Positions 12,789 through 36,833 of a stretch of 64,000 nucleotides of DNA are shown in pieces (within the stretch, counting starts at the first letter, position 1; each line of letters opens with the position of its first letter). The stretch comes from Desulfuromonadaceae bacterium. GTDB taxonomy: Bacteria; Desulfobacterota; Desulfuromonadia; Geobacterales; Pseudopelobacteraceae. A program made the position numbers and the translations under genes. The notes under the pieces were generated by a model. It saw nothing but the letters and a program-made list of their open reading frames with translations, was not told the DNA's origin and did not search any database. The stretch lies in NCBI GenBank assembly GCA_028681335.1, contig JAQUIT010000007.1, positions 950-64,949 of the forward strand. Reading direction: 5' to 3'.

Positions 12789-16296
<3,508 letters not shown>

Positions 16297-20145: not shown

Positions 20146-21570
20146 ATGCCAGAAGAATCATCAAAACGCGCACCGCTTTCGCACCTCCACCCCCCGCAAC
20201 AGGCTCGTCCGAAACTCCTTCTTATTTACCCTGCAACCCACAAACTTGGCTGGGCAAAATATTTTCAGCTTCCTTCCCTCTCTCTCCAGCAGGTTGCCGC
20301 AGTGACGCCTCCGCAGTGGGAGGTGACTCTCGTGGATGAAAGCCAGGAATTGATTCCCTACGGCAGCCACTTTGATGTCGTCGGAATAACCGCCATGACC
20401 CACCAGGCGACACGTGCCTACGAAATTGCCGACCAGTTCAGGAGAGAGGGTGTCACGGTCATCATGGGGGGAATGCACCCGACGGTTATGCCTGAAGAAG
20501 CGCTCACCCACGCAGATGCAGTCGTTATAGGCGAAGCTGAGCCGGTCATGGCCAGGCTCCTCGACAATTTTTTCAGCGGCAGCCTGGAAAAGATCTACCG
20601 GGCACCGATTCCGCAGGACGATACACTTGTTGTGCCCTGGCCACGCCGCGAGATTTTGGCCGGCAAACGATATCTGACCACCCAGACTATTCAGGCCAGC
20701 CGCGGTTGCCCGTACGATTGCTCTTTTTGTACCGTTACGCACTATTTCGGGAATCGCTTCCGCTATCGCGACCCTGCCGACATCCTCGCCGAGATCCGCT
20801 CTTTTCCCCGGAAACTGGTGATTTTTCTGGACGACAATCTTCTGGGGGACCCTGCGATAGCGCGGCCGGTTCTTGAGGGGATGGCGGAGATGGGTATACG
20901 CTGGGGCTCTCAGACAAGTCTGCGTTTTGCCGAAGACCGGGAGCTGCTCAAGCTCGTCGCCCGTTCCGGCTGCATCGGCTTATTCGTCGGAATTGAGTCG
21001 GTAACGGGTCCGTACTCACTGCTCGCTAAATCAGCGGGGCAGACGTCTCAGGCCGAACTTATGAAGCGGGTCAGTGATGCCGGTATTATCCTTGAAACGT
21101 CTCTTATCTTCGGCTTTGACGACCACGATCAAAGCATTTTCGAACGGACTCTCCGTTTTGTTGAGAAGTGTTCTGTGAGTGTTCCAACCTTCAACCTGTT
21201 GACCCCGTATCCGGGAACGAAGCTTTTTCACCAGTATGAACAGGAGGGGCGCCTTTTGCACAGCGACTGGAACCGTTACAACCACTCGGAGGTTGTTTTC
21301 CAGCCGAAGCTGATGTCGCCTGAACAGCTCTACCGGGGGTGGCTGGAGGCTCGTAAGGAGGCGTATACCTGGCCTGCCGTCCTGTCCCGTGTCTGGAGAA
21401 ATCCGGGCCGCCGCATCACAAACCTGGCTTACAACATACTCCGCAAAGGGCCCAACGACCGTCTTAAGGCCGCAGATATGGATGAATGCTCTTTTCAGCA
21501 ACCAGTTCAGGAGTCACTCTATGAAGCCGACGGTACAAAATGCAGCCAGGAGTCGCACCATGCGCGATAG
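20146..21570 (+). CDS. Class B (cobalamin-binding domain) radical SAM enzyme with DUF4070-like C-terminus
   Basis: N-terminal B12-binding-like Rossmann region (LLLIYPAT..., VVGITAMTHQATRAYEIADQFRREGVTVIMGGMHPT), a radical SAM cluster ASRGCPYDCSFC, and a C-terminal tail. The ORF opens at 20119. ATG 20146 has AGGGA upstream. Confidence 0.85.
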   Translation: MPEESSKRAPLSHLHPPQQARPKLLLIYPATHKLGWAKYFQLPSLSLQQVAAVTPPQWEVTLVDESQELIPYGSHFDVVGITAMTHQATRAYEIADQFRREGVTVIMGGMHPTVMPEEALTHADAVVIGEAEPVMARLLDNFFSGSLEKIYRAPIPQDDTLVVPWPRREILAGKRYLTTQTIQASRGCPYDCSFCTVTHYFGNRFRYRDPADILAEIRSFPRKLVIFLDDNLLGDPAIARPVLEGMAEMGIRWGSQTSLRFAEDRELLKLVARSGCIGLFVGIESVTGPYSLLAKSAGQTSQAELMKRVSDAGIILETSLIFGFDDHDQSIFERTLRFVEKCSVSVPTFNLLTPYPGTKLFHQYEQEGRLLHSDWNRYNHSEVVFQPKLMSPEQLYRGWLEARKEAYTWPAVLSRVWRNPGRRITNLAYNILRKGPNDRLKAADMDECSFQQPVQESLYEADGTKCSQESHHAR

Positions 21571-22300
21571 CAGCGCCATCAACCGCGACTTCTATGATGT
21601 TCTCTGGTCAGAGTCTCACCTGAAACAGCCCGATCGTTTCAATACCTGGCCTCTGATTTCCGGTTTATTAGCGCTTGCCCCTGCACGCCTGGAGATAGGC
21701 CCCGGTCTGCGCCCGCGGCTGCCAATATGCGGCACCAGTTTCATAGACATCAGCCCACCGGTTATCGAATGTCTGGAGAAGTGCGGCGGCATCGCGGTCA
21801 CCGGTGAAATAGGTGCTCTCCCGTTCATCACCGGGAAATTCGAACTTGTCTGCGCGTTTGATGTCATTGAGCATGCCGAGGATGACCGGCGGGTTTTTGG
21901 TGAGGTAAGCCGCGTGCTCAAGGAGGGAGGCCATTTTGTCTTTTCCGTCCCGCTGCATACAAAATTCTGGACAAAATTTGACGAATTCGTGGGCCATGTG
22001 CGCAGGTATGATCCTGCTGATTTGCTGTTGCTGATTGCTGCCCACGATCTGGTTCTCGAAAAAAGTGCCATCTACGGCATGCAACCGGCAAACCCACGCT
22101 TGTTGGACCTCGGCATCTGGTGGCTCAAACATCACCGGCGGGAAGCGATGTGGTGCTATAATAAGGTGCTGATGCCGCTGGGGATGCTCATTCAAAAGCG
22201 ATTGAAATTCGTCGATGGACTGGTAGATACGGCCGGTGTCGATGAAATTGTTCTCGTGTGCCGCAAGCGGACCGGGACTTCACAGGGACAGGTACATTGA
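21521..22300 (+). CDS. Class I SAM-dependent methyltransferase
   Basis: Motif I-like LEIGPGLRPRL and FDVIEHAEDDRRVFGEVSRVLKEGGHFVFSVP (Methyltransf_11-like). The ORF opens at 21389 inside the upstream gene. ATG 21521 has AGGAG 7 nt upstream; ATG 21560 is an alternative. Confidence 0.75.
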   Translation: MKPTVQNAARSRTMRDSSAINRDFYDVLWSESHLKQPDRFNTWPLISGLLALAPARLEIGPGLRPRLPICGTSFIDISPPVIECLEKCGGIAVTGEIGALPFITGKFELVCAFDVIEHAEDDRRVFGEVSRVLKEGGHFVFSVPLHTKFWTKFDEFVGHVRRYDPADLLLLIAAHDLVLEKSAIYGMQPANPRLLDLGIWWLKHHRREAMWCYNKVLMPLGMLIQKRLKFVDGLVDTAGVDEIVLVCRKRTGTSQGQVH

Positions 22301-22366
22301 CTTGAAATCGCTTGTAATGTAATGATTATCAGTTTTTTACCGCACTTCCCGGGGTTTACTTAACAG

Positions 22367-23206
22367 ATGCACAATGTTTTAACTGTTGATGTCGAGGATT
22401 GGTACCATGTCTGCGAGCCGGGTAAGGCAGCACCCGTTCCACCGCGTGAATCATGGCGGATTCGTCGTAACCTGGAGAGGATTTTGGCACTGCTTTCCGG
22501 CCATGGTCAGAAGGGCACGTTTTTCATGCTCGGTTCCGTGGCGGAAAACGATCCTGATTTGGCACCTATGATCTGTTCGGCGGGGCATGAAATTGCCTCA
22601 CACGGCTATTCGCACCGTCTGGTCTCTGATTTGACACCAGAGCAGTTTCGGCATGAACTGCAGCTCACCGCACGGATACTGGTGGAGCAGACCGGGCAGC
22701 AACCGATCGGCTACCGGGCGCCGCAATGGTCTCTGTCTGAACAGGTCGGCTGGCCCTTTGCGATCCTGCGGGAAGAAGGGTATCGCTACGACTCAAGCCT
22801 CAATCCTCTTCCCTTTGTGGGTAATTCCCGCGGCAGCCGCACTCCCTATCCACTTGAGGGTGAAGGGGCAGGTCTGTGGGAGATCCCGCCGATGGTGACC
22901 CGGTCCTGGATCGGCAATTTGCCCACCGGTGGCGGGTGGGGCTTCAGGTTATTCCCTTTCAGGGCCATTTGTTCGACTATCGATGGGCTGAATCGGTCCC
23001 GTCAGCCGGCTGTTCTGTATCTCCACCCCCGGGAGGTGGACCCTGCCGGCCCCCGGCTTGACCTTCACGTCCTGAAACGGTTCGTATCCTATGGAACCAG
23101 AACGGATGCGTCCATCCGATTGGGTGGGTTGTTACAGCGGTATCAATTTACCACTATCAAGGAGTTACTAACACGTGGCAGCATGTATCCTGATTCCTGC
23201 ATATAA
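22367..23206 (+). CDS. CE4 polysaccharide deacetylase with DUF3473-type C-terminus
   Basis: N-terminus LTVDVEDWYHV, metal-binding HGYSHR and a YRAPQWS motif. This pattern is typical of deacetylases found in exopolysaccharide and lipid loci. Confidence 0.8.
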   Translation: MHNVLTVDVEDWYHVCEPGKAAPVPPRESWRIRRNLERILALLSGHGQKGTFFMLGSVAENDPDLAPMICSAGHEIASHGYSHRLVSDLTPEQFRHELQLTARILVEQTGQQPIGYRAPQWSLSEQVGWPFAILREEGYRYDSSLNPLPFVGNSRGSRTPYPLEGEGAGLWEIPPMVTRSWIGNLPTGGGWGFRLFPFRAICSTIDGLNRSRQPAVLYLHPREVDPAGPRLDLHVLKRFVSYGTRTDASIRLGGLLQRYQFTTIKELLTRGSMYPDSCI

Positions 23207-23837
23207 CGCTGCAAAAACCATTCTGCCGGTGGTACGGGAGAGTCTGGAACATGGCTTGTCGGTCGTACTGGTGGATGACGGTTCAACAGACAGTACGTCG
23301 ACTTTGGTGGCCGGACTGCCGGTGACGCTGCTGCGGCACCAGCAAAACCGTGGTAAGGGGGCTGCGCTGAAAACCGGGTTTGCCTGGGCGGTCAAGTCCG
23401 GATTTGATGCCGTCGTCACCATCGATGCCGATGGCCAACATGATGTTGCAGCCATCCCGAGGTTGATCTCATCGGCACAAAACGGTGCGTGGGGGATACT
23501 GATTGCGTCGCGTCACACCCAGTTTGAACAGATGGCCGGACTCCGTAAATTCTGGAATCGAATCGGTGTCTGGTGCATCTGGAAACGCACCGGTTTTGAG
23601 ATCACCGACAGTCAGTCCGGCTTCAGGTACTATTCGGGTGACGTCGTGGAAAAATTATCACTGGAGTCAAACGGATACGCACTTGAGATGGAAATCCTGC
23701 TTAAGGCCTGGAAGAACGGTTTTACGATTGGTTCCCTCCCGATTGCCGCACGGGTTGCCGATGGGCGCGCAACCAGCCACTACCGGCCCATAAGCGATAC
23801 CTTTACTATCAGCATGACATTCTTACGTAATATGTGA
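23175..23837 (+). CDS. Family 2 glycosyltransferase (short, soluble, DPM1/ArnC-like catalytic domain)
   Basis: 220 aa. ILIPAYNAAKTI, VLVDDGSTDST and TIDADGQHD (DXD). GTG start overlapping the upstream gene by 32 nt. Confidence 0.8.
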   Translation: MAACILIPAYNAAKTILPVVRESLEHGLSVVLVDDGSTDSTSTLVAGLPVTLLRHQQNRGKGAALKTGFAWAVKSGFDAVVTIDADGQHDVAAIPRLISSAQNGAWGILIASRHTQFEQMAGLRKFWNRIGVWCIWKRTGFEITDSQSGFRYYSGDVVEKLSLESNGYALEMEILLKAWKNGFTIGSLPIAARVADGRATSHYRPISDTFTISMTFLRNM

Positions 23838-23852
23838 CGAGGAACTTTTCAT

Positions 23853-25229
23853 ATGATCAACACCCTGAAAAACTATACAAAAGAGAAGGTCCTTTCCTAC
23901 CTCCTGGAACTGGCGATAAATTCATCGGATGAGACCCTGATCCGCATGACCCATCTGATGGAGATGATTCCCAAGAAAGACTACTACAAGGAACGCATCC
24001 GCTGGATTCGCGGCCTGGTGCGGGATAAGCATCCGAGTATCGAATTTCCGCGCCGGATTTTGCGTGATCTGCACCCCAATCAGCGCGACAAATGGATCAG
24101 CAATCTGTTGGTCAATCACCTGCTGAACGGCACCAACAAACGCAAGGAGTGGAGCGACACCCACGGCTATTATCCTCCTTCAACGGTGGTCATCAGCCCT
24201 ACCATGCGCTGCAACCTGAACTGCTATGGCTGTTACGCCGGCGACTACAACAAGTCGCTGGAGCTTTCTCTGGATGAGGTTGATTCCATCCTGCTCCAGA
24301 TGAAGGAGATGGGTGTCTACTTTGCGGTAATATCCGGCGGTGAGCCGTTTTATATGGAAGGTATCTTCGAGATATTCAAAAAGCATAGCGACATGGCCTT
24401 CCTGGTCTTTACCCACGGGGGCCTGATCGATGAGAAGATGGTTGAGAAGCTGACCGAGGTCGGCAACGTCATGCCGTCATTTTCGCTTGAAGGGTATGAA
24501 CAGGAAACCGACGAACGCCGCGGCGCGGGACATTTCAAAAAAGTCATGCACGCCATGGACCTGCTGCGGGAGGGGGGGCTCTCCTTCTGCGGTTCATTTA
24601 CCCATTCGCGCAAAAACTCCGATATTATCACCAATGGCGACTATATCGACATGCTCCTGAAGAAGGGTGTTTTTGCCATGTGGCTCTTTTCCTATGTACC
24701 GGTTGGCCGTAAGCCCGAGCCGGAGCTGATGCCGACCCCCGAACAGCGCGATGGCCTGCGCCGTACCGTTATCGACTACCGTGCCACCAAGCCGATGCTG
24801 TTCATCGATTTCTGGAACGACGGGCCGATGATCTCCGGCTGTCTGGCCGGCGGGCGCAAGTATTTCCATATCAACGCCAACGGCGATATCGAGCCGTGTG
24901 TCTTCTGTCATTTTGCCGTTGATAATATTCGCCGGACAACCATTCATGAGGCACTGGCATCGCCGTTTTTCACCAAAATCCGCCAAAAACAGGGTGAACA
25001 TGACAACCTGCTCCGTCCCTGTATGCTGATCGATCAACCTGCAGCCGGACGCGAGTTGTTCGCCTCGGAGGGTGCCTATCCGACCCATGACGGGGCGGAT
25101 GAAATTTTCACCGGGCTGGCGGACAGCATGGATGAATACTCCCGTGCCTATGGTGAGATTGCCGATCCGGTCTGGGAAAACGAGTTCAAAACTCTTCAGC
25201 CGAAGACGAAAAAAAGGGGCGGCAACTGA
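23853..25229 (+). CDS. Radical SAM enzyme with SPASM/twitch-like C-terminal Cys cluster and a roughly 110-aa N-terminal extension
   Basis: 458 aa. Radical SAM cluster ISPTMRCNLNCYGCYAG and an auxiliary-cluster-like ISGCLAGGRKYFHINANGDIEPCVFCHF. No precursor-peptide ORF is visible nearby. Confidence 0.8.
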   Translation: MINTLKNYTKEKVLSYLLELAINSSDETLIRMTHLMEMIPKKDYYKERIRWIRGLVRDKHPSIEFPRRILRDLHPNQRDKWISNLLVNHLLNGTNKRKEWSDTHGYYPPSTVVISPTMRCNLNCYGCYAGDYNKSLELSLDEVDSILLQMKEMGVYFAVISGGEPFYMEGIFEIFKKHSDMAFLVFTHGGLIDEKMVEKLTEVGNVMPSFSLEGYEQETDERRGAGHFKKVMHAMDLLREGGLSFCGSFTHSRKNSDIITNGDYIDMLLKKGVFAMWLFSYVPVGRKPEPELMPTPEQRDGLRRTVIDYRATKPMLFIDFWNDGPMISGCLAGGRKYFHINANGDIEPCVFCHFAVDNIRRTTIHEALASPFFTKIRQKQGEHDNLLRPCMLIDQPAAGRELFASEGAYPTHDGADEIFTGLADSMDEYSRAYGEIADPVWENEFKTLQPKTKKRGGN

Positions 25230-26584
25230 TGGATGTACTGCTGGTAAACCCCCCATCATCCAGCGTATTTAACACATTCGGCCTGAGTCTCCCATCCATC
25301 GGCCTGCTCTATGTCGCCGCCACCCTTGAACAGGCTGGCCACAGCGTGGTCGTACGGGATCTGGCCGCAGATGACGGACATCTGGATGACGCCGATATCC
25401 GCCAGGCTGACGTGGTCGGGATTTCGGCTGATACGACAAGGTCGGCCAAGGCGCTCGCCATTGCCCGCAGGGTCTCTGTGCTCGGCCGGCCGGTGGTGAT
25501 GGGCGGTCCGCATCCCCAATTCATGGCGGCTGATATTTTTGCTTCAGGATTTGTTGACTATATTGTCAGGGGAGAGGGGGAATTCATTTTTCCCAACCTG
25601 CTGGCCGCTCTTCAAAACCGGGATAGTGTCGCCTCGGTAAAAGGGTTGATCATCAAGGATGGGGGCCACCTGATTGAAACCGCTGCCGCCGATCCGATTG
25701 ACGTTGAAACCCTCCCTTTTCCCGCCCGGCACCTGGTGGATCTGCATCAGTACCGGGCCAGTATGGACGGCCGTCCCATCACTCCCATTGTTACCAGCCG
25801 CGGTTGCCCCGGTGCCTGTCATTTCTGCTCATCTTCAAGTTTTTTCGGCAGGGGATGGCGCTTCCGGAGTGCCGAATCGGTGCTGGCGGAGCTGGATGAG
25901 ATTTATACCCGCTATGGTTTTCGGGCCGTCTGCTTCATGGATGACAACTTCACCCTTGCGCCGCCGCGGGTCGAACAGATTGCCGCCGGCATCATCGAGC
26001 GCGGCTATGACCTGAAATGGTGGAATTTTTCACGGGTCGATACCATCGTGAAGAATCCGGCCATGGTCACCCGAATGGCGGCGGCCGGTTCCAAAACGGT
26101 CTATCTCGGCATCGAAAGCGGCAACGAGGATACGCTGAACTCCCTCGGGAAGAACACCAACGCACGTGATGTTACCAGGGCCGTGGAAATCCTGCGGCAA
26201 AACGGGATCGAATCCTATGGCAGCTACATCATCGGCAACCTGAACGAGACCGCCGCAGATGTTGAAAGTACGATTGATCTGGCGGTAAGGCTTAATACCA
26301 ACATTGCCCAGTTTACCATCCTGACCCCCTATCCCGGCACTCAGCTCTATGAGGAGATCAAGGACCGCATCTTCTGCCGGCGCTGGAAGTTTTACGATGG
26401 CTTGCACCTTGTTTTCCGCCATCCACTGATAAACCGTCATTACATGCAGTTTCTGCTGGTAAAGGCTTTTATGAAATTTTATCGACGTTCGCACGAGGCC
26501 ACCCGGGGTTTCAAGCAGGCTGCCGGCCGGGGCAAGCTAACCTCCCGAAAGCTGGCGCTCTGTGCGTGGGATCTCTTTTTTTAA
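25229..26584 (+). CDS. Second class B (cobalamin-binding domain) radical SAM enzyme
   Basis: 451 aa. B12-domain-like N-terminus (VLLVNPP..., VVGISADTTRSAKALAIARRVSVLGRPVVMGGPHP) and a radical SAM TSRGCPGACHFC. The start overlaps the upstream stop (TGATG). Confidence 0.85.
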   Translation: MDVLLVNPPSSSVFNTFGLSLPSIGLLYVAATLEQAGHSVVVRDLAADDGHLDDADIRQADVVGISADTTRSAKALAIARRVSVLGRPVVMGGPHPQFMAADIFASGFVDYIVRGEGEFIFPNLLAALQNRDSVASVKGLIIKDGGHLIETAAADPIDVETLPFPARHLVDLHQYRASMDGRPITPIVTSRGCPGACHFCSSSSFFGRGWRFRSAESVLAELDEIYTRYGFRAVCFMDDNFTLAPPRVEQIAAGIIERGYDLKWWNFSRVDTIVKNPAMVTRMAAAGSKTVYLGIESGNEDTLNSLGKNTNARDVTRAVEILRQNGIESYGSYIIGNLNETAADVESTIDLAVRLNTNIAQFTILTPYPGTQLYEEIKDRIFCRRWKFYDGLHLVFRHPLINRHYMQFLLVKAFMKFYRRSHEATRGFKQAAGRGKLTSRKLALCAWDLFF

Positions 26585-26640: not shown

Positions 26641-27558
26641 GTGACCTTTTACAGCAATTTCAATCTGTTCCTTATCAAACTGTTCACCATTCTGGTGCCG
26701 CGGTGGCTGTTTCCGCCGTTCACTTTTTTCTGGGGGGGGCTGTTTTACCTGCTGCTGACGGAGACCCGGAGGGGTGTGCGTTCCAATCTGCAGGTGGTCA
26801 CCGGCAGGAATAATGTGGAACGGCTGGTGTTTTCAACCTTCCGCACGTTCAGCCATAACTGGTGTGATGAGATGCTGTTTATGCGGCTCAAGGGGGAAAA
26901 ACTCCAGGCGCTGATCGGGCGGCGCTGCAGCAGCGACTCACTCGATCGGGCGCTGGCAGCCGGCAACGGCGCGATCCTTGTCTCGCCCCATCTCGGCAGC
27001 TGGGAACTGGGCGGCTTGGCGCTGGCGGATTTAGGCTATACGGTCAACGTGTTGACGTTCCGCGAGCCGGATGAAAAGGTGAACGAGCTGCGTGAAGCGG
27101 TCAGACGGGAGCGTGGTGTCCGTTTCATCTATGTTGACCGGGACGATTCCTCGCCGTTTGCCATAATCGAGGCGGTTCACGCACTGAGGCGTAACGAGGT
27201 GCTGGCGATACTCGGTGACCGGGATGGCTCCTCCCACACCATTCTGATCGATTTTTTCGGTCGGCCGACCAACATCCCGGTGGGGGCAGCCTATCTGTCG
27301 CTGGCCAGCAGTGCGCCGGTAATCCCGGTTTTCGTGCTGCTGGAGGATAAAGGGCGCTATGCGACCGTCATGGAAGAGCCGATCTTTTTCACCAGCGGTC
27401 ACGGGGAGCATGAGAGTGCCATCCGCTCCGGCATGGAGAAGCTGCTGGCGGTGTTTGAGAGATATATACGGGCGTACCCTGATCAGTGGTACAATTTGTA
27501 TGATTTTTTCGGAAGAGGCATTGAACCGGACAAATCAAAAGGGCAGATAAACAGGTAA
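26641..27558 (+). CDS. LpxL/HtrB-family lysophospholipid / lipid A acyltransferase
   Basis: 305 aa. N-terminal TM, catalytic HX4E box VSPHLGSWELGG and a C-terminal YPDQWYNL motif typical of the Lip_A_acyltrans family. Confidence 0.8.
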   Translation: MTFYSNFNLFLIKLFTILVPRWLFPPFTFFWGGLFYLLLTETRRGVRSNLQVVTGRNNVERLVFSTFRTFSHNWCDEMLFMRLKGEKLQALIGRRCSSDSLDRALAAGNGAILVSPHLGSWELGGLALADLGYTVNVLTFREPDEKVNELREAVRRERGVRFIYVDRDDSSPFAIIEAVHALRRNEVLAILGDRDGSSHTILIDFFGRPTNIPVGAAYLSLASSAPVIPVFVLLEDKGRYATVMEEPIFFTSGHGEHESAIRSGMEKLLAVFERYIRAYPDQWYNLYDFFGRGIEPDKSKGQINR

Positions 27559-27607: not shown

Positions 27608-27865
27608 ATGAGCGATGAGTTGATTGAAAAGGTTAAACAGATGATTATTGACAGCCTGCGTATCGAGGGGATGGCGACCGATGAAATCGATGCTGACGCC
27701 CCGCTGTTCGGCGAAGGGCTGGGGCTTGACTCCATTGATGCGCTGCAGCTCGTTGTGGCCATGGAGAAGGAATTCGGCGTAGTCGTCCCTGACGCCGCCA
27801 CCGGTTCAACAGTTTTTGCCTCGGTGCGGAGCATGGCCGGGTATATCGGGGAACACCGGAAATGA
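27608..27865 (+). CDS. Acyl carrier protein (cluster-dedicated)
   Basis: 85 aa. Phosphopantetheine site GLGLDSIDALQLVVAMEKEFG. Confidence 0.9.
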   Translation: MSDELIEKVKQMIIDSLRIEGMATDEIDADAPLFGEGLGLDSIDALQLVVAMEKEFGVVVPDAATGSTVFASVRSMAGYIGEHRK

Positions 27866-27905
27866 AGGGACTCCTGATCTCCTCCGGGCGCAAGGGGAGA
27901 GGTGC

Positions 27906-29152: not shown

Positions 29153-29390
29153 CGCTGCCGGCCATCTTCTGGCCGTGCTCGACCTCTGTTTTGAATCAGA
29201 TACCCTGCAGGCGGTTTCCTCCACTCTTGCGGAAGAGTAACCCGGTGCCGCTCTCCTCTCCCTGTGCAACATGATCCAGGGCAGACATCATCGGTCGCTC
29301 TGTTGACCGCTCCAGCAAGTGCCACTTGCTGGACATTTTACGGTGTGACCAGTATAGTGGGAGAACTGTTTATAAGGGCTTGGGGTGGGT

Positions 29391-30131
29391 ATGGAGTTTA
29401 AGGATTCAATCATTATTGTTACCGGCGGGACGAGGGGCATCGGCAGGGCCGTCTCCCTGGCTTTTGCCCGTGAAGGCGCCACCGTATTCGCCGCCTATCT
29501 GAGTAATGACGGAGCGGCCCGGACGGCGACCGAAGAGGCCGTCGGCCTGCCGGGGACAGTTACGCCGTTCAAGTGTGACGTGTCGACCTCAGAAGGGGCA
29601 TCCAGTCTGATTAACGCCGCTGCGGCGGCATCCGGGCACATTGATGTACTGGTGAACAACGCCGGGATCATCAGGGACTGCTACCTGGCCATGATGTCGG
29701 AGGAGGATTGGGACGCGGTCATCCGCTCAAATATCAATCCGCTTTTTCACTGCTGCAAGTGGGGCCTGCGCAAGATGATGGGGCGCCGCAGCGGCAGTAT
29801 TGTCAACATCTCTTCAATCTCCGGGGTGATCGGCACCCAGGGACAGACCAACTATGCCGCCTCCAAAGGGGCTGCGATCAGCTTCACAAAATCGTTGGCT
29901 CGCGAGGCCGGACCGATGGGGATACGTGTCAACGCGGTTGTCGCGGGGATGATTGCGACGGAGATGACCGCTGGTCTGAAACAGGATGTGGTGGAACAGG
30001 TTGTCCGCAGGTCGTCCCTCGGGAGGATCGGTACCCCTGAGGAGGTTGCAGCCGCAGTCCTGTTTCTCGCGTCGGAGCGGGCTTCGTATATTACCGGCCA
30101 ATCAATCATTGTTGACGGTGGTATCGTGTGA
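29391..30131 (+). CDS. 3-oxoacyl-ACP reductase (FabG-like SDR)
   Basis: TGGTRGIGRA cofactor motif, NNAG and the catalytic YAASKGA. ATG 29391 is 2 codons into the listed ORF. Confidence 0.88.
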   Translation: MEFKDSIIIVTGGTRGIGRAVSLAFAREGATVFAAYLSNDGAARTATEEAVGLPGTVTPFKCDVSTSEGASSLINAAAAASGHIDVLVNNAGIIRDCYLAMMSEEDWDAVIRSNINPLFHCCKWGLRKMMGRRSGSIVNISSISGVIGTQGQTNYAASKGAAISFTKSLAREAGPMGIRVNAVVAGMIATEMTAGLKQDVVEQVVRRSSLGRIGTPEEVAAAVLFLASERASYITGQSIIVDGGIV

Positions 30132-31333
30132 ACAGAAAACGTGTCGTCATCACCGGTTTGGGGGTCTTCTGCAGCGTCGGGAAGAACGTCGTGGAATTTA
30201 CCGATGCGCTCTGCACAGGCAGATGCGGCATTGGGCCGGTGGACCTGTTTGACGTTTCTCCCTTTCCGGCCAAAATAGGTGCGCAGATCAAGGGGTATGA
30301 CCCGCTCGATTACTTCGATTCACGTTCATCCCGCAAACTGTCCCGTTCCGATCAGTTCGGTGTCATTGCCGCCGGCCAGGCGCTCCGGGACAGTGGCGCT
30401 GTTGACTGTTACTCCCCCTATGACAGGGGGGTCTCCATGGGTGCGGGCGCTGCCGGCATGTTCCAGGGAGAGACCTGGCTCAAAGCCCTGCTCGAGGGGA
30501 GGGAGGAGCGTCCATCGCTGCTGCGCGGCATCCTGCCGGATCAGACCTCGACGGATATCGCCCGTACCTACAATCTCTGCGGCTACCAGGGGACGGTGAC
30601 GACCGCCTGTTCCTCCTCCGCAACCGCCATCGGGTGGGCGGCAGATCTGGTGGCGTGCGGTCGTCAGAAGCTTATGGTGGCAGGCGGAGCGGATACGCTC
30701 TCGATGCTTACGTTTGCAGGGTTCAATTCACTGCGGGTGGTCGACTCCCAGCCCTGTGCCCCTTTCAGCCTCGGCCGTCAGGGCATTTCCCTCGGTGAGG
30801 GGGCTGCTTTTGTTGTGCTGGAGCGTGAGGAGGATGCCCTCGCCCGCGGCGCCCGGGTGTACGGTGCCGTGCTCGGCTATGCCCTGGCGGGCGAAGCGTA
30901 CCACATGACGGCGCCCGAACCGGGTGGTACGGCGGCGGCGGGTGTCATGCTCCAGGCCCTTGAGCGGTCGGCTGTTGATGCGTCGCAGGTCGGCTGGGTT
31001 AACGCCCATGGTACCGGTACGCCGCTCAACGACGTGGTTGAGTCGAATGCGATGAAACTGGTCTTTGGTGAGCGCGCTCCCCATGTGCCCCTCATTTCCA
31101 CCAAAGGGATGACCGGACACTGCCTGGGTGCTGCAGGAGCTATCGAGGCCGTCGCAACCGTGATCGCACTCAATAGGAAAATTATCCCCCGGACGCTCAA
31201 TTTCCGTGGCCGTGACCCTGAATGTGACCTGGAGTATTGTCATGGCGGCAGCGTGCCGACCGATAGTACCATCGCCATGTCCAACTCCTTTGCCTTCGGC
31301 GGGAATATTACCTCTCTGGTGCTGTCACTATGA
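30128..31333 (+). CDS. Beta-ketoacyl-ACP synthase (KAS II-like, catalytically complete)
   Basis: 401 aa. Cys in TTACSSSATAIG, His in NAHGTGTPLND and His in STKGMTGHCLGAAG. Confidence 0.9.
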   Translation: MNRKRVVITGLGVFCSVGKNVVEFTDALCTGRCGIGPVDLFDVSPFPAKIGAQIKGYDPLDYFDSRSSRKLSRSDQFGVIAAGQALRDSGAVDCYSPYDRGVSMGAGAAGMFQGETWLKALLEGREERPSLLRGILPDQTSTDIARTYNLCGYQGTVTTACSSSATAIGWAADLVACGRQKLMVAGGADTLSMLTFAGFNSLRVVDSQPCAPFSLGRQGISLGEGAAFVVLEREEDALARGARVYGAVLGYALAGEAYHMTAPEPGGTAAAGVMLQALERSAVDASQVGWVNAHGTGTPLNDVVESNAMKLVFGERAPHVPLISTKGMTGHCLGAAGAIEAVATVIALNRKIIPRTLNFRGRDPECDLEYCHGGSVPTDSTIAMSNSFAFGGNITSLVLSL

Positions 31334-32373
31334 ATACTCCGATCTCAGGAATTGTCGTTACCGGTTACTCCGCTGTATCCGCTGCCGGAATTGGGATAGC
31401 CGCCATTCAGGAGCTTCTGTGCAGTGGACGTGATGCGCTTGCGCCCATTCCCGGCGATCTGATTGGCAGGGATGGCTTGCGCTGGGGGAAAGTGAACGGG
31501 TTCAAGGCGTCCGATTTTATGCCGCCCATGAAGGCCCGCAAGATGGATCGTTGCAGCCAGTTTGCGGTTGCGGTCGCCGGTCTGGCCTTGAAAGAGGCCG
31601 GTATCGACCTGAAAGAGCTCCCTCCGGAACGGGTCGGAATTGCGCTCGGCAGCGGTTTTTGCGGTGTCTCCAATTCCGCCGAATTTCTGACCGGGTACTT
31701 CACCGGTGGCGTTGAGGGGTTGATCCCGATGATTTTTCCCAACACCGTCCCCAATTCCCCTGCCAGTAATGCCTCCATCGAGCACGGCTTCAAGGGGCCC
31801 AACGTTACTCTGATCCAGCGCTTCTGCTCGGCAGAATCCGCGTTCATGATGGCATGCCGTTTTATCGAAGAGGGACGTGCCGATATCATGCTGACCGGAG
31901 GAGCGGATGAGCTCATACCGCTCATCGTCAAGGGTTTGGATACCATGGGGCAGATGAAGCCCGCTTCCGCACCATTCGGAGAAGGGTGCGGCATGGTCGT
32001 CCTGGAGAGTGCGGCCCATGCCGCACGGCGCGGTGCATCGGTAAAAGCATCGGTAGAAGCCATCACAACCATCGGTATGCTTGCTTCCGGACATGAAGGT
32101 GAAGCTCTCGACCTGCTTGCCGGTTCACCTGATTCCGGGTGCCACGTCTCGCTCTCCGGGACGGCAGCTGATATGCCGGGACTACTGGAGCGGGTTTCCC
32201 CCGGCTCCGCGATCGATATCGGGCGTACGGTCGGCCGTTCTCTGGCCATGGGCGGCACCGCCATGGCGGCACTGCTTGCCTCGCTCCAGCATGGCCAGGC
32301 AGGCCTGCACCTGGCTGCCTCACCCGAAGGTCCGTACTATGCCATCCGCTTCAGAGGAGGAGCCCCTGTTTAA
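31330..32373 (+). CDS. KS-like partner subunit (chain-length-factor-like; lacks the His-His dyad)
   Basis: 347 aa with thiolase-fold similarity to the upstream KS (LTGGADE). A Cys is retained in QRFCSAESAF, but no HGTGT or GH motifs are present and the C-terminal half is short and divergent. 4-nt overlap with the KS gene. Confidence 0.7.
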   Translation: MNTPISGIVVTGYSAVSAAGIGIAAIQELLCSGRDALAPIPGDLIGRDGLRWGKVNGFKASDFMPPMKARKMDRCSQFAVAVAGLALKEAGIDLKELPPERVGIALGSGFCGVSNSAEFLTGYFTGGVEGLIPMIFPNTVPNSPASNASIEHGFKGPNVTLIQRFCSAESAFMMACRFIEEGRADIMLTGGADELIPLIVKGLDTMGQMKPASAPFGEGCGMVVLESAAHAARRGASVKASVEAITTIGMLASGHEGEALDLLAGSPDSGCHVSLSGTAADMPGLLERVSPGSAIDIGRTVGRSLAMGGTAMAALLASLQHGQAGLHLAASPEGPYYAIRFRGGAPV

Positions 32374-32749
32374 TCCCGACCCTGCACATTATCTGCCGCA
32401 CCGCTACCCCTTTCTGTTCCTTGACCGGATTCTTGAGCTGGAACAGGGGGTACGGGGAGTTGCCCGGAAAGGTGTGGGAGCTACCCGCGGTTTCCCTCAG
32501 ATCCTCATGATCGAATGCGTTGCCCAGTTGGCCGGTATTGTTGTTGCGCAGGAAGAGGGGGAGGGAGGCTTTATGGCTTCGATTGATCACGCCGAATTTT
32601 CCGCCCCGCCGGATGCGGGGGAGATACTGACCGTTTCAGCAAGGGTGATAAAATCATTCGGGCGGTTGTTCATGATAGAAGGGACTGTTTCCAGCGGCGC
32701 GGATCAGCTCCTCTCCGTGCAACTGACCCTGGGAGTGGGAAAACTGTGA
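32339..32749 (+). CDS. FabZ/FabA-like 3-hydroxyacyl-ACP dehydratase
   Basis: Hallmark LPHRYPFLFLDRI plus a hotdog core (IECVAQLAG). The listed ORF (32081) starts inside the upstream gene. ATG 32339 gives 136 aa. Confidence 0.85.
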   Translation: MPSASEEEPLFNPDPAHYLPHRYPFLFLDRILELEQGVRGVARKGVGATRGFPQILMIECVAQLAGIVVAQEEGEGGFMASIDHAEFSAPPDAGEILTVSARVIKSFGRLFMIEGTVSSGADQLLSVQLTLGVGKL

Positions 32750-33381
32750 AGTGTATGAATCAGGCACGGCTGTTGCCAACTATATTCGTTTTGTTGCTGG
32801 TGATGCTCCTGCTGGACAGCACCATCTGCACCGCACGTACCATTTCTCCTCTTGAAGGGCTGGAGGCTTTTCGCCGCGGCTTTGCCGGCATTACTGATTT
32901 CACCGCCGATATCACCCAGGAAAAACGGCTCTCCCTGATGAAACGGGCCATGGTGATGAACGGCTCGCTTCGCTTTAAAAAGCCCGATCTGTTTTTTATG
33001 GAGATAAACCCTCCCTTCAGCAGCCGTATGCTGCTGCGGGATACCGTCATTGAACAGGTCGCCGGCAGAGACAAAAGCCCCACCAGGATTGCACTTCCGC
33101 CGGAACAGGGGCTGAAACAGTGGTTTTCCAAACTGGCTGCACCGGTCACGTCGTTGCCGGACGGGGTTCAAGTGCGGGCCGACCTGACCAACTCCGTCTA
33201 CACCTTGACAATTTCCCCTGCAGACAAAGGGCAGGTCTCGGATATCTCCATAGTTTTTCTGGAGAACGGCACGGTCAGAAAGCTCGTTATTAACGAGAGG
33301 AACGGTGACCGGGCCACCATGACCCTTAAAAATGTACGCCGCAATGTCGGCCTGACCGAGAAGGATTTCCGGCTGGAATAG
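32746..33381 (+). CDS. LolA-like outer-membrane lipoprotein/lipid carrier protein
   Basis: 211 aa. Signal peptide, then FTADITQEKRLSLMKRAMVMNGSLRFKKPDLFFMEI, the LolA-family pattern. Confidence 0.75.
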   Translation: MKCMNQARLLPTIFVLLLVMLLLDSTICTARTISPLEGLEAFRRGFAGITDFTADITQEKRLSLMKRAMVMNGSLRFKKPDLFFMEINPPFSSRMLLRDTVIEQVAGRDKSPTRIALPPEQGLKQWFSKLAAPVTSLPDGVQVRADLTNSVYTLTISPADKGQVSDISIVFLENGTVRKLVINERNGDRATMTLKNVRRNVGLTEKDFRLE

Positions 33382-33395
33382 ATTGAGTATCAGGA

Positions 33396-33557: not shown

Positions 33558-33575
33558 CCCAGGAAAGAGTCCATT

Positions 33576-34271
33576 ATGCCGTTCTATCGATTACTAAAAC
33601 ATCTGCTGCCGCTTCTGCTGCTGACCGCGTGCGCCACGATCCCGACCCCGCTGCCCGATCACCGCCCGGGAGCGGTCATGGAAACACTCTCGTCTGCCGT
33701 ATCCATATCGATCCACACCGCAGGTCGGAGTATGGGTGGGAGCGGTTATCTGCTCTTTCGCCGCCCCGATCAACTCCATCTCGTGGTGCTCTCACCCTTT
33801 GGTACGACGATGCTGGAGGCCTTTGCCCTTGGAGACCGCATCACCCTGATCTATCCCTCCCGCTCAACCGCCTATGTGGGGCGTTTTGATGAGCTGCCCG
33901 AAAAGGGGGGCTTGCAGGGATGGCGTTTGATGCGCTGGGTGATGGATGCGGACCCTCGCGAAGCGGGGCAGCCGCTGAACGGAACGGTGGAACGCACCGG
34001 TGCGCTGGGAAGTTCTGAAAAGGTGACCTACGAGAACGGCCTGGTCACCGCCAAGGATTCTGCGAGCGGCGATCATGTCAGCTACAGCAGCTATAGCGTC
34101 GTCAACGGTGTCCCGGTTGCAGCGGAACTGGACCTGCGCAACGCGCGAGACAACCGGATCCGGATAACACTCGATGAGCCGGAGGTCAACACACACCTTG
34201 ATGATGCCGTTTTTGCGCCGCATCTTGACGGGTTGACGGTCATGCCCCTGTCGGCCATCAAGGGGCTTTAG
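33576..34271 (+). CDS. Lipoprotein (LolB/DUF3261-like, as found beside LolA-like genes in aryl-polyene-type clusters)
   Basis: 231 aa. Lipobox LLLTAC in MPFYRLLKHLLPLLLLTACA. No other motif is recognisable by eye. Confidence 0.55.
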   Translation: MPFYRLLKHLLPLLLLTACATIPTPLPDHRPGAVMETLSSAVSISIHTAGRSMGGSGYLLFRRPDQLHLVVLSPFGTTMLEAFALGDRITLIYPSRSTAYVGRFDELPEKGGLQGWRLMRWVMDADPREAGQPLNGTVERTGALGSSEKVTYENGLVTAKDSASGDHVSYSSYSVVNGVPVAAELDLRNARDNRIRITLDEPEVNTHLDDAVFAPHLDGLTVMPLSAIKGL

Positions 34272-34277
34272 AGCCGG

Positions 34278-36833
34278 ATGCCTCTGAAAACCGCCTTCCG
34301 GCTGACGTCACTGTTCAACGCCCTCACCCGCCGCCATCTGGAATGGCTCTTTCGGGTCACCACCACGAGGCCCCGGGCCGTCCTGGGCGCTTTTTTTATT
34401 TCGCTGCTGATCTCGGTCGCCGTGATCTCCACAACCCGCTTCGACTCCGATATCTTTCAGCTCTTCCCATCGCGCCAGCCTGCACTGAAGCTCCTGCTCG
34501 ACTCACTGCAGTGGAGCGGCAGCGCCAACGAAGCCTATTTTCTGCTGGAAGGGGAGAGTCAGGAGCTGCCCCGAGAGGCGGCGCGTTTTGCCGAACGTCT
34601 CCGTACGGCGCAGGTTGACGGGAAGCCGGCCTTCCGGCGCATCACCTGGAGAGTGTTCGACGAGAGTGAGGCCGCTTCCTTTACCGACTTCATCGCCTAC
34701 GCCGTGACCCATCCGCAACTGTTTATCGGCCCCGACGATGTCCCCGCTCTGCTGCAGCGCTTTACCCCCGCCTCAATGGACGAATCACTACGCCGGACCC
34801 AGGCCGATCTCGCCGGCCAGTTCGGCGGTGCCATGACCGGGTTGGCCAGTGCCGACCCGCTCCAGCTGCGGGATCTTATCCTGCCGCGCCTCAAGGCTGC
34901 AAGCCAGGCGCTCGACCTGGACCCGGACTCACCCTACTTCATCTCGCGGGATGGCAAGGTGCTCATCATGATCGCCGAGCCGGCCCGACCGGTACAGGAT
35001 ATGGTTTTTGCCCGCGCCCTGGTGGCGACCATCAACCAGGCGCGACAGGGGTCAACGGTCGCCATCTCCTGCGCCGGTGCCCATATCAGTGCGGTGCTGG
35101 ATGAGGCGGCGATGAAGTTCAATATTCTCGCCTGCATCATCTCCTCGCTCGTGGTGGTACTGGCGATCTTCTATGCGGTCTACCGTCGCCTCCTGCCCAC
35201 GCTGCTCCTGCCGCTGATCATCAGCGTCGGCGTTATCTTGGCGCTGGGGGTTGCCGGGGCGCTGCTCCCTTCGATCCACATCATCTCCTTTGCCTTTATG
35301 GCGCTTATCGTCGGTCTCGGGACCGACTATTCAATCCACCTCTATGACCGTTTTCACAGCGAACGGGCTGGCGGCAGAGATTCGGAGGAGGCGCTCCACC
35401 TGGCGGTTGTCGATACCGGCCACAGCCTTTTCACCGCTGCCACCACCACCTCCATGCCGTTCTTCGCCCTGATGCTCTCCGATGTGCGGGCCCTGTCCGA
35501 GTTGGGACTGCTGGTCGGGCTGGGGGTGCTGTTCTCGCTCTACACGACCTTCTTCTTTCTTCCGCCGCTCCTGGTGTTTATGGAAAAACGCTTTCCCGCC
35601 ACCTACCTGCCGATACCGGGTCTTGGCATGCGCCATATCTGGCGCCTGGCCGGCCGGTTTCCCCGTGCCGTCGTGACACTATCGCTTCTGATAGTCGTCA
35701 TTATGGCCGCGGCTTCCACCCGGACCTTCTTTGACGGTGATCTTAAAAACCTGCAGCCGCGCCATTCCGAGGCGTTTCTGGCCCAGGAGAAGATCGAGCG
35801 CCACCTGAGTCTGGCCCCCAAACAGCTGCTCGTAGCGGTGGAGGGGAAGGCGTTGGCAGAGGTGCTCCGGCGTGCGTCACTCGTGGATGGATTGGCCGGA
35901 AGGTGGCTGAGTAGCGGCCGTATCAGCAGTTGGTCGTCACTGGGACAGATTGTAAATAACCGTGACCGGCAGAGCGAGGTCAGCCGCGGCATCACCGCCG
36001 GGGCGGAGGGTGGCCTGCCGGTTATGAGCTTGAACGGAGTGCTGGAAAAGCAGGGGTTCGAGACCCGCCCCTTTCAGCCCTTCATTGCGGCGCTTTCCGG
36101 CGGTAGTGCCCTGACACCGGTGCCCGAAGAGGAGGCGCTTGCCCGGCTGAAAGCCTCGCCGCTGCGGGGAGTCGTTGAGCGCCATCTGGTGAAAGATGCC
36201 AACGGGTATCACGCGCTGCTCTATCTGTATTACCGGAATACCGGCTTTGACCAGAGCGCTTTTCTGCGCGAGCTGAGCGCAATCGATCCCACGGCACGGG
36301 TTACCAGTGTGGATCTGGTGAGCTCGCAACTGGCCACATCGGTCCGGCAGGGTTTCCTCCGGGCATTTCTGGTCGGCGGCCTGTTGGTGCTGTTTCTGCT
36401 CTTGTCCCATTTTAAATCCCCCGGCGGCATCTTCTACACGATGTTTCCGATAATTGCCGGTTCGCTGGCAATGTTGGGCCTCATGGCGTTCAGCGGAATG
36501 GGGCTCAATTTTATGAATGTCATGGTACTGGTGACGATCATCGGGATGGGGAGCGATTACGGTCTGCATCTCAGCCACCGGATTTCAACCGGTGATCCGC
36601 AGGGGAGAGAGAGTCGGTTCATCCAGGCCGGCCGGGCGGTGATCATGTCGGCGCTGACCACCATCGCCGGCTTCGGTTCCCTGGCGCTGGCCGATTACCC
36701 CGCCCTCGCCTCCATCGGCTGGGCCACAAATTTCGGGGTTGGGTGCACCGCTCTGTTTGCGCTGGTGACGTTACCGGCGGTTATGGTTCTGCTGCTGCGA
36801 CGGAGGGAGGCAGCGTGCGGTCAGCCGGAATAA
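34278..36833 (+). CDS. MMPL/RND-superfamily lipid exporter (two 6-TM bundles, two periplasmic loops)
   Basis: 851 aa. Duplicated hydrophobic blocks (around aa 280-440 and 700-840), each preceded by a long soluble loop. The architecture resembles HpnN/ApeM-type exporters. Confidence 0.8.
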   Translation: MPLKTAFRLTSLFNALTRRHLEWLFRVTTTRPRAVLGAFFISLLISVAVISTTRFDSDIFQLFPSRQPALKLLLDSLQWSGSANEAYFLLEGESQELPREAARFAERLRTAQVDGKPAFRRITWRVFDESEAASFTDFIAYAVTHPQLFIGPDDVPALLQRFTPASMDESLRRTQADLAGQFGGAMTGLASADPLQLRDLILPRLKAASQALDLDPDSPYFISRDGKVLIMIAEPARPVQDMVFARALVATINQARQGSTVAISCAGAHISAVLDEAAMKFNILACIISSLVVVLAIFYAVYRRLLPTLLLPLIISVGVILALGVAGALLPSIHIISFAFMALIVGLGTDYSIHLYDRFHSERAGGRDSEEALHLAVVDTGHSLFTAATTTSMPFFALMLSDVRALSELGLLVGLGVLFSLYTTFFFLPPLLVFMEKRFPATYLPIPGLGMRHIWRLAGRFPRAVVTLSLLIVVIMAAASTRTFFDGDLKNLQPRHSEAFLAQEKIERHLSLAPKQLLVAVEGKALAEVLRRASLVDGLAGRWLSSGRISSWSSLGQIVNNRDRQSEVSRGITAGAEGGLPVMSLNGVLEKQGFETRPFQPFIAALSGGSALTPVPEEEALARLKASPLRGVVERHLVKDANGYHALLYLYYRNTGFDQSAFLRELSAIDPTARVTSVDLVSSQLATSVRQGFLRAFLVGGLLVLFLLLSHFKSPGGIFYTMFPIIAGSLAMLGLMAFSGMGLNFMNVMVLVTIIGMGSDYGLHLSHRISTGDPQGRESRFIQAGRAVIMSALTTIAGFGSLALADYPALASIGWATNFGVGCTALFALVTLPAVMVLLLRRREAACGQPE

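Follow-up and report, generated by a model that had tools for sequence, protein, structure and literature searches.

A trimmed member of a conserved Geobacterales gene cluster family and its possible radical SAM-tailored outer-membrane lipid

Aryl polyene (APE) clusters and the candidate ladderane clusters of bacteria that oxidize ammonium anaerobically (anammox bacteria) are the described systems compared here with a 17-gene operon of a Desulfuromonadaceae bacterium. The operon lies at 20146-36833 of a stretch of 64,000 nucleotides (assembly GCA_028681335.1, contig JAQUIT010000007.1, positions 950 to 64,949 of the forward strand), termed the window below. In the aryl polyene lipid (APEL), the aryl polyene is esterified to N-acetylgalactosamine (GalNAc), which is joined via a phosphate to diacylglycerol (bioRxiv 10.1101/2020.12.19.423268). 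For X. doucetiae, a two-step role of ApeJ was proposed: GalNAc is attached to a glycerophosphate lipid, and the sugar then receives its acyl group from ApeE. Lipid export was proposed for ApeM, ApeL and ApeN (bioRxiv 10.1101/2020.12.19.423268; PMC8253772).

The anammox Cluster I (kuste3603-3608) comprises amxACP, amxFabZ, the amxFabF2/amxFabFmut pair resembling a ketosynthase (KS) and chain-length factor (CLF), a phytoene-desaturase-like gene and a cobalamin (B12)-binding radical S-adenosylmethionine enzyme (rSAM); its role is unproven (PMC10139942). Genetics are not available for anammox bacteria, and the rSAM has not yet been produced heterologously (PMC10139942). Candidate clusters of Kuenenia list rSAMs, a methyltransferase and a deacetylase-like gene, and similar candidate clusters were noticed in Geobacter, Pelobacter and Desulfotalea (Rattray et al., 2009; PMC2649909). 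No ladderanes were found in D. psychrophila, which harbors such a cluster (PMC2649909). Ladderane-type clusters of Desulfobacterota and other phyla have been reported as unexplained antiSMASH calls. According to a 2026 review, rSAM modification of lipids concerns nearly always isoprenoids; the only acyl lipids that it names as proposed targets are ladderanes and the Jaw5 product (PMC13459092).

The operon, its relatives and three deletions

All 17 open reading frames (ORFs) of the operon are co-directional on the plus strand, of full length and in agreement with the gene calls of the metagenome-assembled genome (MAG). An earlier note made from the DNA letters had described 17 tightly spaced genes of named domain content; the gene calls bear out the former, and Pfam and NCBIfam profile scans of the 17 proteins confirmed every domain. 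The genes are listed below with their status in related loci where assigned; ACP stands for acyl carrier protein.

20146..21570, plus strand: G1, B12-binding and Radical_SAM domains with a DUF4070 tail (Pfam); semi-core, paralogue group G1/G1b
21521..22300, plus strand: G2, class I SAM methyltransferase (Pfam Methyltransf_11; MAG gene call); accessory
22367..23206, plus strand: G3, CE4 deacetylase with DUF3473 (Pfam); core, in every full locus
23175..23837, plus strand: G4, GT2 glycosyltransferase of the lipid-phosphate hexose(NAc) synthase type; core, counterpart of the GT2 part of ApeJ
23853..25229, plus strand: G5, radical SAM enzyme with a SPASM/twitch-type auxiliary-cluster domain (Pfam) and an N-terminal extension of ~105 aa; core
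25229..26584, plus strand: G6, B12-binding and Radical_SAM domains (Pfam); accessory
26641..27558, plus strand: G7, acyltransferase of the LPLAT/LpxL family (Pfam PF03279 Lip_A_acyltrans); core, counterpart of the acyltransferase part of ApeJ
27608..27865, plus strand: G8, ApeE-type ACP (PP-binding; NF006617, 71.6 bits against a cut-off of 70); core
27906..28733, plus strand: G9, FabD/MdcH-like malonyl-CoA:ACP transacylase (AT; Pfam Acyl_transf_1); core
28730..29152, plus strand: G10, hotdog (YbgC/4HBT) thioesterase (TE), ApeK-like (Pfam); core
29391..30131, plus strand: G11, FabG-type ketoreductase (KR; profile scans, MAG gene call); optional block
30128..31333, plus strand: G12, FabF-like KS with intact triad Cys161/His294/His331
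31330..32373, plus strand: G13, full-length KS-like partner of the CLF type, 347 aa
32339..32749, plus strand: G14, FabZ-like dehydratase (DH; NCBIfam FabZ 56 bits, under cut-off)
32746..33381, plus strand: G15, LolA-like periplasmic carrier (Pfam LolA 45 bits; LolA2_flexi 50 bits against a cut-off of 125)
33576..34271, plus strand: G16, LolB-like lipoprotein (Pfam LolB 30.8 bits) with an LTAC lipobox at the N-terminus
34278..36833, plus strand: G17, MMPL/RND-type lipid exporter (Pfam MMPL; HpnN 203 bits, under cut-off)

According to the coordinates, adjacent genes overlap eight times (1-50 bp) and are separated by six short gaps (6-66 bp) and two wider ones, TE-KR with 238 bp and LolA-LolB with 194 bp. 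The ratio of nonsynonymous to synonymous substitution rates (dN/dS) against two relatives (L004, L006) ranges from 0.03 to 0.26 across all 17 genes. The lowest value, 0.03 for G5, marks the strongest constraint in the cluster and is on par with gyrA; G1 reached 0.11. The operon is thus real and intact, of conserved order and under purifying selection. The closest protein matches come from Desulfuromonadaceae and Geobacteraceae.

Relatives were collected with a scan based on a G6 alignment, using one genome per species, which yielded 79 loci; the window proteins were compared with them by tblastn. Four further loci (L086-L089) were reached via G5 homologues of cultured strains, with genes assigned by best match. 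About 25 related Geobacterales loci share a core in the order CE4-GT2-G5-LPLAT-ACP-rA-AT-TE-rL, found in every locus other than the window that covers the region. The same gene order was maintained at 45-98% protein identity in about 20 loci. The B12 rSAM gene rL is present in 19 of 19 other loci, always behind the TE gene, and rA in 18 of 19. G5 is 75-98% identical across Geobacterales. Carriers in culture include Geobacter pickeringii G13, Trichlorobacter lovleyi, Geotalea toluenoxydans, G. anodireducens/soli, Oryzomonas and Pelotalea. In most loci, including those of G. pickeringii and T. lovleyi, rL is followed by a KR-KS-CLF-DH-LolA-LolB-MMPL block. Strain AM-1 (G. anodireducens type) and Geobacter sp. 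FeAm09 lack this block; MaoC, DCC1 and Tex come next in the former and an MFS gene in the latter. It is therefore an optional part of the family.

Other genes vary among the loci: G6, G1/G1b, an HpnR-like rSAM, the HpnJ-like rSAM rJ, a small rSAM, G2 and a 201-aa ORF. One locus (L032) encodes about five B12 rSAMs. G1 orthologues with 64-89% identity occur in most relatives at varying positions, and G2 only in the nearest ones (L004, L005, L006, L017, L023). G6 is missing from all four loci reached via G5, while in at least nine loci its orthologues (69-84% identity) have only unrelated genes as neighbours. L012 comprises G1-G5-G6-ACP and no other cluster gene. L013 shows G5-G6-ACP, again without another cluster gene; this locus is cut at the 5′ end, and the position of G1 is lost. 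In L025 (Syntrophobacteraceae) the genes are rearranged and the gene set is unchanged. The earlier note had regarded the operon as a Fab/export unit fused to a first half of six genes with the rSAMs, and had asked whether these six occur apart. The division did not hold: the core of the relatives spans both halves, and the optional part extends from KR to MMPL. As to a separate occurrence, G6 alone and the G1-G5-G6-ACP module were found, but CE4-GT2-G5 was never separated from LPLAT-ACP-AT-TE in the loci compared. In relatives, B12 rSAM genes are inserted between ACP and AT and between TE and KR. Because of this interleaving with ACP, AT, TE and KR and the G1-G5-G6-ACP module, the rSAMs are assigned to the acyl pathway.

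The window is colinear with L004, L005, L006 and L038 at 72-89% nucleotide identity (85-89% to L004, L005 and L006), except for three gaps detected by blastn. Their remains are:

19629..20145, no strand: intergenic stretch with the rJ junction (~19647); relatives carry the HpnJ-like B12 rSAM gene rJ here on the minus strand
27862..27909, plus strand: rA stub of 15 codons (MKGLLISSGRKGRGA*), an in-frame deletion of a core B12 rSAM gene with first and last codons remaining
29154..29273, plus strand: rL pseudogene remnant of 120 bp; 60% identity over 40 aa to residues 31-70 of rL from L008 (tblastn), with an in-frame stop

The rJ gap, adjacent to a PagL-like gene, corresponds to 1.05-1.36 kb of L004/L006 sequence. 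The rJ gene was found in L006, L008, L010, L015, L032 and L038, and some relatives carry a small rSAM at this position as well. The rA deletion removed 1.22 kb relative to all four colinear loci, with a 17-bp overlap at the junction. The start codon of the stub overlaps with the stop of ACP, and its stop codon with the start of AT; both ATGA overlaps are thus kept, and translational coupling from ACP via the stub to AT looks preserved. Beside the rL remnant, about 1.3 kb is missing relative to the same four loci. No copy of rA or rL was found elsewhere in the 64 kb. The locus is represented in three independent assemblies, two MAGs (including GCA_028701675.1, contig JAQVQH010000009.1) and one Logan assembly, and all share the deletions. 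This agreement, together with the paralogue identity of only 25-40%, the junction overlap at rA and the in-frame stub, led to the rejection of an assembly artefact as the cause. The genes rA, rL and rJ were removed by three clean, lineage-specific deletions.

Two points changed in this light relative to the earlier note. The gap between TE and KR is no plain spacer and carries the deleted-gene remnant 29154-29273. The three rSAM genes are present as stated; since the window lacks rA, rL and rJ, they are not a self-standing trio and represent the remainder of a set of five to six B12 rSAMs plus the SPASM enzyme. The window locus is an intact but trimmed member of a cluster family that is conserved in Geobacterales and uncharacterised.

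Several loci at the margin of the family are recorded here. The lone G6 genes are located in Geobacterales-like MAGs (L007, L009, L011, L014, L016, L019, L020, L021, L035), two of the loci (L009 and L035) in one MAG. Two Planctomycetota MAGs (L034, L036) show a trio of LPLAT, LolA-like and G6-like genes (L036 8177-11362), the G6-like protein being 47-49% identical. L036, with the 49% identical G6 homologue, is titled Candidatus Kuenenia stuttgartiensis; at 59-65% G+C the label looks wrong, and no link to anammox bacteria was drawn from it. In three Omnitrophota loci (L079-L081), two KS-like genes in tandem and a KR gene are found at a distance of 2-3 kb from B12 rSAMs that are 26-28% identical to those of the family; these loci may be a distant cousin of the same theme. 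The locus of Geobacter pickeringii (L089, CP009788.1) carries GlmU-type and GlmS-type genes of the UDP-GlcNAc route (2169-5498) 3-6 kb upstream of CE4, with two divergent B12 rSAM genes between them and CE4.

Aryl polyene counterparts, remaining radical SAM enzymes and the putative lipid

The ape cluster of E. coli CFT073 served as APE reference in BLASTP comparisons, complemented by tblastn of the APE proteins over the 64 kb. The ACP G8 is 42% identical to ApeE and has the ACP of the A. baumannii APE system (9ls6) as best match in the Protein Data Bank (PDB). G4 matches the GT2 part of ApeJ (30% identity, E = 1e-22) and G7 a second stretch of ApeJ (25.5%, E = 7e-14), while G7 has no match to ApeD. 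The ApeJ counterpart is thus split into two genes in the window, whereas it is one fusion in APE clusters. Further pairs are G10-ApeK (30%), G11-ApeQ (33%), G12-ApeO (32%) and G17-ApeM (24%). Neither BLASTP nor tblastn gave a window match to ApeA, ApeB, ApeD, ApeG, ApeH or ApeI. G15 and G16 had no BLAST match to ApeL or ApeN and are recognized as LolA- and LolB-like by their Pfam domains. The absence of an aryl starter enzyme, pointed out in the earlier note, was confirmed: tblastn with CFT073 ApeH detected no ApeH-type aryl ligase in the 64 kb, and neither an ammonia-lyase nor a chorismate-utilising enzyme turned up among the 17 cluster proteins and the roughly 20 flanking ORFs scanned with Pfam and NCBIfam.

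Both systems have in common a FabZ/FabA-like DH, an inactive KS partner, LolA-like, LolB-like and MMPL export genes, and the lack of an enoyl reductase. They differ in the carrier and condensing proteins. APE clusters encode tandem ACPs (ApeE and ApeF), the window one of the ApeE type. The KS G12 is closer to FabF (276 bits in PDB comparisons) than to Iga11 (221 bits) or ApeO (6smo_B, 185 bits). Its partner G13, derived from FabF and of full length, has retained the Cys and carries Ser and Arg at the positions of the two His. The 240-aa ApeC, by contrast, is missing its C-terminal half. A second KS, ApeR, is present in APE clusters, while the window has no third KS. In addition to the APE inventory, the window encodes CE4, the FabD/MdcH transacylase, the SPASM rSAM and two B12 rSAMs, where relatives have up to about six of the latter. 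The likeness to the APE family holds for the anchoring and export genes, with G4, G7, G8, G10, G11, G12 and G17 homologous at 24-42% identity; the KS is nearer to FabF, and G13 is unlike ApeC. Flexirubin models remained under their cut-offs with G11 (FlxB, 220 bits, cut-off 340) and G15 (LolA2, 50 bits, cut-off 125).

The APEL structure gives a concrete template for the predicted roles of G4, G7 and G8. For G4, the top NCBIfam models are PpgS (94.7 bits) and AglJ (91 bits), both under cut-off, and the match to ArnC is weak (40 bits). G7 scores 107 bits on a phosphatidylinositol mannoside (PIM) acyltransferase model (cut-off 209) and at most 73 bits on LpxL/LpxM models. The closest named models, polyprenyl-phospho-GalNAc synthase for G4 and PIM sugar-hydroxyl acyltransferase for G7, both below cut-off, would fit the proposed steps. 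The deacetylase G3 reaches 215 bits on TIGR03006 (XrtA/PEP-CTERM polysaccharide deacetylase; cut-off 276). G9 scores higher on MdcH (122 bits) than on FabD (102 bits), both under cut-off; the GHSMG motif, the malonyl-binding Arg about 24 residues past the Ser and the His in PLHTP are present. It is the dedicated FabD-like acyltransferase that the earlier note had named. The catalytic residues of G14 are present in the sequence, His in LPHRYPF and Glu in MIECVAQ.

Two B12 rSAMs, a SPASM rSAM and a CE4 deacetylase are indeed embedded in the operon, as confirmed by Pfam. G1, G5 and G6 do not reach the cut-off of any curated NCBIfam family; the characterised families compared were BchE, HpnR, HpnJ, PhpK, AprD4, MgmA, AhbD, NirJ, PqqE and others. 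The best scores were obtained for G6 with BchE (190 of 481 bits required), G1 with BchE (99 of 481) and G5 with AhbD (86 of 500). On TIGR04072, G1 attains 73 and G6 107 bits (cut-off 360). No close solved homologue was found, with best PDB matches of at most 75 bits (G5: SkfB, 50.6 bits), so none of the three falls into a characterised family. A placement of G5 among Tes/Mss-type enzymes was rejected, because a PDB profile search gave generic rSAM/SPASM matches and just 21 bits for GDGT-MAS/Tes. An AlphaFold2 model of G5 from a 30-sequence alignment was too poor to be used (mean pLDDT, the predicted local distance difference test, 58.5; N-terminal 104 residues <50). At E <= 1e-30, the G5 family including the N-terminal extension comprises 552 representative clusters. 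The distant relatives, as 50%-identity representatives, are nearly all metagenome proteins. Two relatives with about 40% identity were inspected in context: one in a Bacillota MAG (L090 7929-10758) has a B12 rSAM gene directly next to it, the other in another MAG (L091 7159-8574) lies alone among housekeeping genes. By sequence, the G5 family extends far beyond the lipid cluster. The interleaving of rSAM genes with ACP, AT and TE, and the G1-G5-G6-ACP module, make C-methylation or other C-H functionalisation of an ACP-bound chain the most economical guess for the rSAM chemistry.

A phospho-hexosamine lipid of the outer membrane with an rSAM-tailored acyl chain is, with some reserve, the probable product of the trimmed Geobacterales cluster. 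In the proposed pathway, G9 would load malonyl on the ApeE-type ACP G8, and G12/G13 together with G11 and G14 would elongate the chain on G8. Since the cluster encodes no enoyl reductase, hydroxyl groups or one or more double bonds would remain in the chain, unless a housekeeping FabI takes part. G5, G1, G6 and the methyltransferase G2 would tailor the chain on the ACP, G6 possibly after transfer, most plausibly by C-methylation or another C-H functionalisation. G4 may put an N-acetylhexosamine (HexNAc) on a lipid phosphate, either phosphatidic acid or polyprenyl phosphate, like ApeJ and the PpgS-type GT2s. The CE4 deacetylase G3, an activity absent from ape clusters, would then strip the N-acetyl group and expose the sugar amine. 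G7 is predicted to transfer the tailored chain from G8 to the sugar, at the freed amine or an O position, while G10 might edit or release. G17, G15 and G16 would take the finished lipid to the outer membrane. A sugar supply is suggested by glmU and glmS just upstream of the G. pickeringii cluster, which was counted in favor of this lipid. Whatever rA, rL and rJ contribute in relatives should be missing from the product of the trimmed copy. For the Geobacterales family as a whole, a wider claim is conceivable and appears more doubtful than probable: a new class of outer-membrane phospho-aminosugar lipid, whose fatty-acyl/polyketide chain would be tailored on a dedicated ACP by the SPASM rSAM and up to six cobalamin rSAMs, e.g. 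by multiple C-methylations or C-C bond formation.

Several points weigh against the proposed phospho-hexosamine lipid. The likeness to APE proteins amounts to just 24-42% identity, G4 and G7 are under all named-family cut-offs, and G12 resembles FabF more than ApeO. The loss of two otherwise universal rSAMs could mean that the pathway is being dismantled. G6 orthologues exist in genomes without neighbouring cluster genes, the contexts of two distant G5 relatives are unrelated to lipid genes, and some rSAMs may act on a general substrate. The family has no known product, and hence every chemical step is inferred. The literature searched, on Geobacter in connection with aryl polyenes or ladderanes and on TIGR04072, yielded no characterised product of this gene combination, in accordance with the earlier note.

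Flanking genes and competing explanations

The cluster sits near the replication origin. The genes gyrB and gyrA were confirmed upstream; three ORFs between yidC and gyrB (10071-13889) are probably dnaA, dnaN and recF. Downstream follow gpsA and probably ispF. A CofH/MqnC-type radical SAM gene (1654-2790, minus strand) in the housekeeping block rnd, mnmG, mnmE, yidC has no relation to the cluster. Immediately behind the MMPL gene, a co-directional 551-aa ORF (36886-38541) gave a faint HEAT-repeat match and no NCBIfam match; the flanks of the related loci end before the equivalent position. At 40245-49083, a gene for a ShlB/FhaC-type transporter is followed by a 2342-aa ORF, by look a candidate two-partner secretion pair. 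Two features adjoin or divide the cluster:

19038..19628, minus strand: PagL-like outer-membrane beta-barrel (lipid A 3-O-deacylase family; Pfam PF09411, 72.8 bits)
29330..29358, plus strand: sigma-70-like site TGGACA-17-TATAGT, the best match of the region (10/12), just 5′ of KR

The PagL-like gene adjoins the cluster in L004, L006, L008, L010, L015, L024, L032 and L038. In L015 it is inserted between G1 and the rJ rSAM gene, i.e. inside the cluster. This conserved divergent neighbour may belong to the system. The sigma-70-like site lies between the core and the optional elongation/export block, of which it may be an internal promoter; sites of this kind are no more frequent in the region than expected from shuffling.

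The PagL-like neighbour, conserved and in one relative internal to the cluster, also speaks for an alternative. In a remodelling of lipid A or lipopolysaccharide, GT2 and CE4 would make a lipid-phosphate aminosugar, G7 would put a special chain on lipid A, and the PagL-like deacylase would free the position. The pairs ArnC/ArnD and LgmA/LgmB make lipid-phosphate-linked aminosugars, G4 has its weak 40-bit match to ArnC, and the Pfam family of G7 is Lip_A_acyltrans. However, no ArnT-like GT-C transferase is encoded, the exporters are MMPL, LolA- and LolB-like proteins instead of MsbA/Lpt, G7 fits the PIM acyltransferase model better than LpxL/LpxM, and G4 and G7 jointly match ApeJ. Lipid A remodelling is considered unlikely. 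A decaying cluster, whose product was lost with rA, rL and rJ while the other genes have yet to degrade, would account for the absence of the TIGR04072 gene present in 19 of 19 other loci and for an rL remnant that is still recognisable with its in-frame stop. The 17 full-length genes with dN/dS values of 0.03-0.26, the in-frame rA deletion with both ATGA overlaps and the restriction of the deletions to rSAM genes argue against decay, which is regarded as quite improbable.

The separate occurrence of G6, the KR-to-MMPL block missing in L086 and L088, and the promoter-like site 5′ of KR could point to two unrelated adjacent pathways, one for sugar and rSAM functions (G1-G6) and one for Fab and export functions (G7-G17). 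The break, however, is not at G6/G7, as CE4-GT2-G5 always accompanies LPLAT-ACP-AT-TE; relatives interleave rSAMs with ACP, AT, TE and KR; and G4 and G7, which such a border would separate, correspond to two parts of one and the same APE protein. Little credence is given to such a division. The most remote of the alternatives is a ladderane-like chemistry, in which the rSAMs would build strained rings, cyclobutane or others, into a polyunsaturated chain. The parallel was drawn by Rattray et al. (PMC2649909); the rL of the family meets the rSAM_ladder_B12 model, and KS/CLF, a FabZ-like DH and a dedicated ACP are shared with the anammox Cluster I. In the window, however, rL is deleted and no phytoene-desaturase-like gene is present: the candidate at 52047-53522, the only amine oxidase of the window, is a protoporphyrinogen oxidase (HemY). 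The Fab-like proteins compared show no special affinity to their anammox counterparts (G14 with amxFabZ, G8 with amxACP); among PDB matches of G14, amxFabZ (35 bits) does not exceed ordinary FabZ (37 bits). No ladderanes were found in D. psychrophila with its similar cluster, and the involvement of the anammox cluster itself is unproven. Ladderane-like chemistry is thus rated as highly improbable. The phospho-hexosamine lipid with a tailored acyl chain remains the preferred product.

Comparison with ladderane clusters and sugar-lipid pathways

Shared between the Kuenenia clusters and the window family are a dedicated ACP, a Fab-type KS with its mutated partner, a FabZ-like DH and several rSAMs, together with a methyltransferase and a deacetylase-like gene. 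Compared with the anammox clusters, those of Geobacterales add APE-type genes for sugar transfer, acyl transfer and export. The curated model TIGR04072 (rSAM_ladder_B12) bears the description 'lipid biosynthesis B12-binding/radical SAM protein'; the rL proteins of L008 and L032 pass its cut-off of 360 with 376 and 386 bits. Because of these scores, the resemblance to ladderane clusters is judged to be real homology at the family level; the anammox link rests on the model. The ladderane likeness noted earlier thus applies to the family through rL; it is weak for the window copy, where rL is deleted, a phytoene-desaturase-like gene is missing and the Fab-like proteins are not specifically anammox-like. 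PDB entry 9s5h, a KS pair, may be the anammox heterodimer; as the preprint states no code, it was not relied on.

If the family does make the new lipid class considered above, no acyl lipid tailored by rSAMs would precede it apart from the unproven anammox case. The rSAM type of TIGR04072 is found within the cluster in cultured strains, too. The loci form a natural series of rSAM sets, and comparative lipidomics could reveal the roles of the enzymes. The window would represent a natural triple-deletion variant in this series, and a comparison with relatives and cultured carriers would assign the reaction of the TIGR04072 rSAM.

Nod-factor biosynthesis combines the same activities. There, the GT2 NodC makes the HexNAc unit, the CE4 deacetylase NodB frees the amine, the ACP NodF and the KS NodE supply an unusual unsaturated chain, and NodA attaches it. 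The likeness is a functional analogy and there is no specific sequence relation; G3 scores 42 bits on NodB (cut-off 240). The Nod-factor system uses a chitin oligomer as acceptor, NodA as transferase and secretion, whereas the window probably involves a sugar on a lipid phosphate, an LPLAT-type enzyme and outer-membrane export. ArnC/ArnD, LgmA/LgmB of Bordetella and the mycobacterial PpgS system resemble G4 and G3 in their order of steps: a small GT2 of the DPM1 type works on a lipid phosphate, and a CE4-type deacylase then uncovers the amine. In contrast to these, the window has no downstream GT-C transferase, its scores are below the cut-offs, and the pair is embedded among ACP, acyltransferase and rSAM genes.

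The family was first noticed in 2009 (PMC2649909) and is captured by TIGR04072; it is not a new kind of system. To these known clusters, the window adds a reduced variant and a sharper definition of the core.

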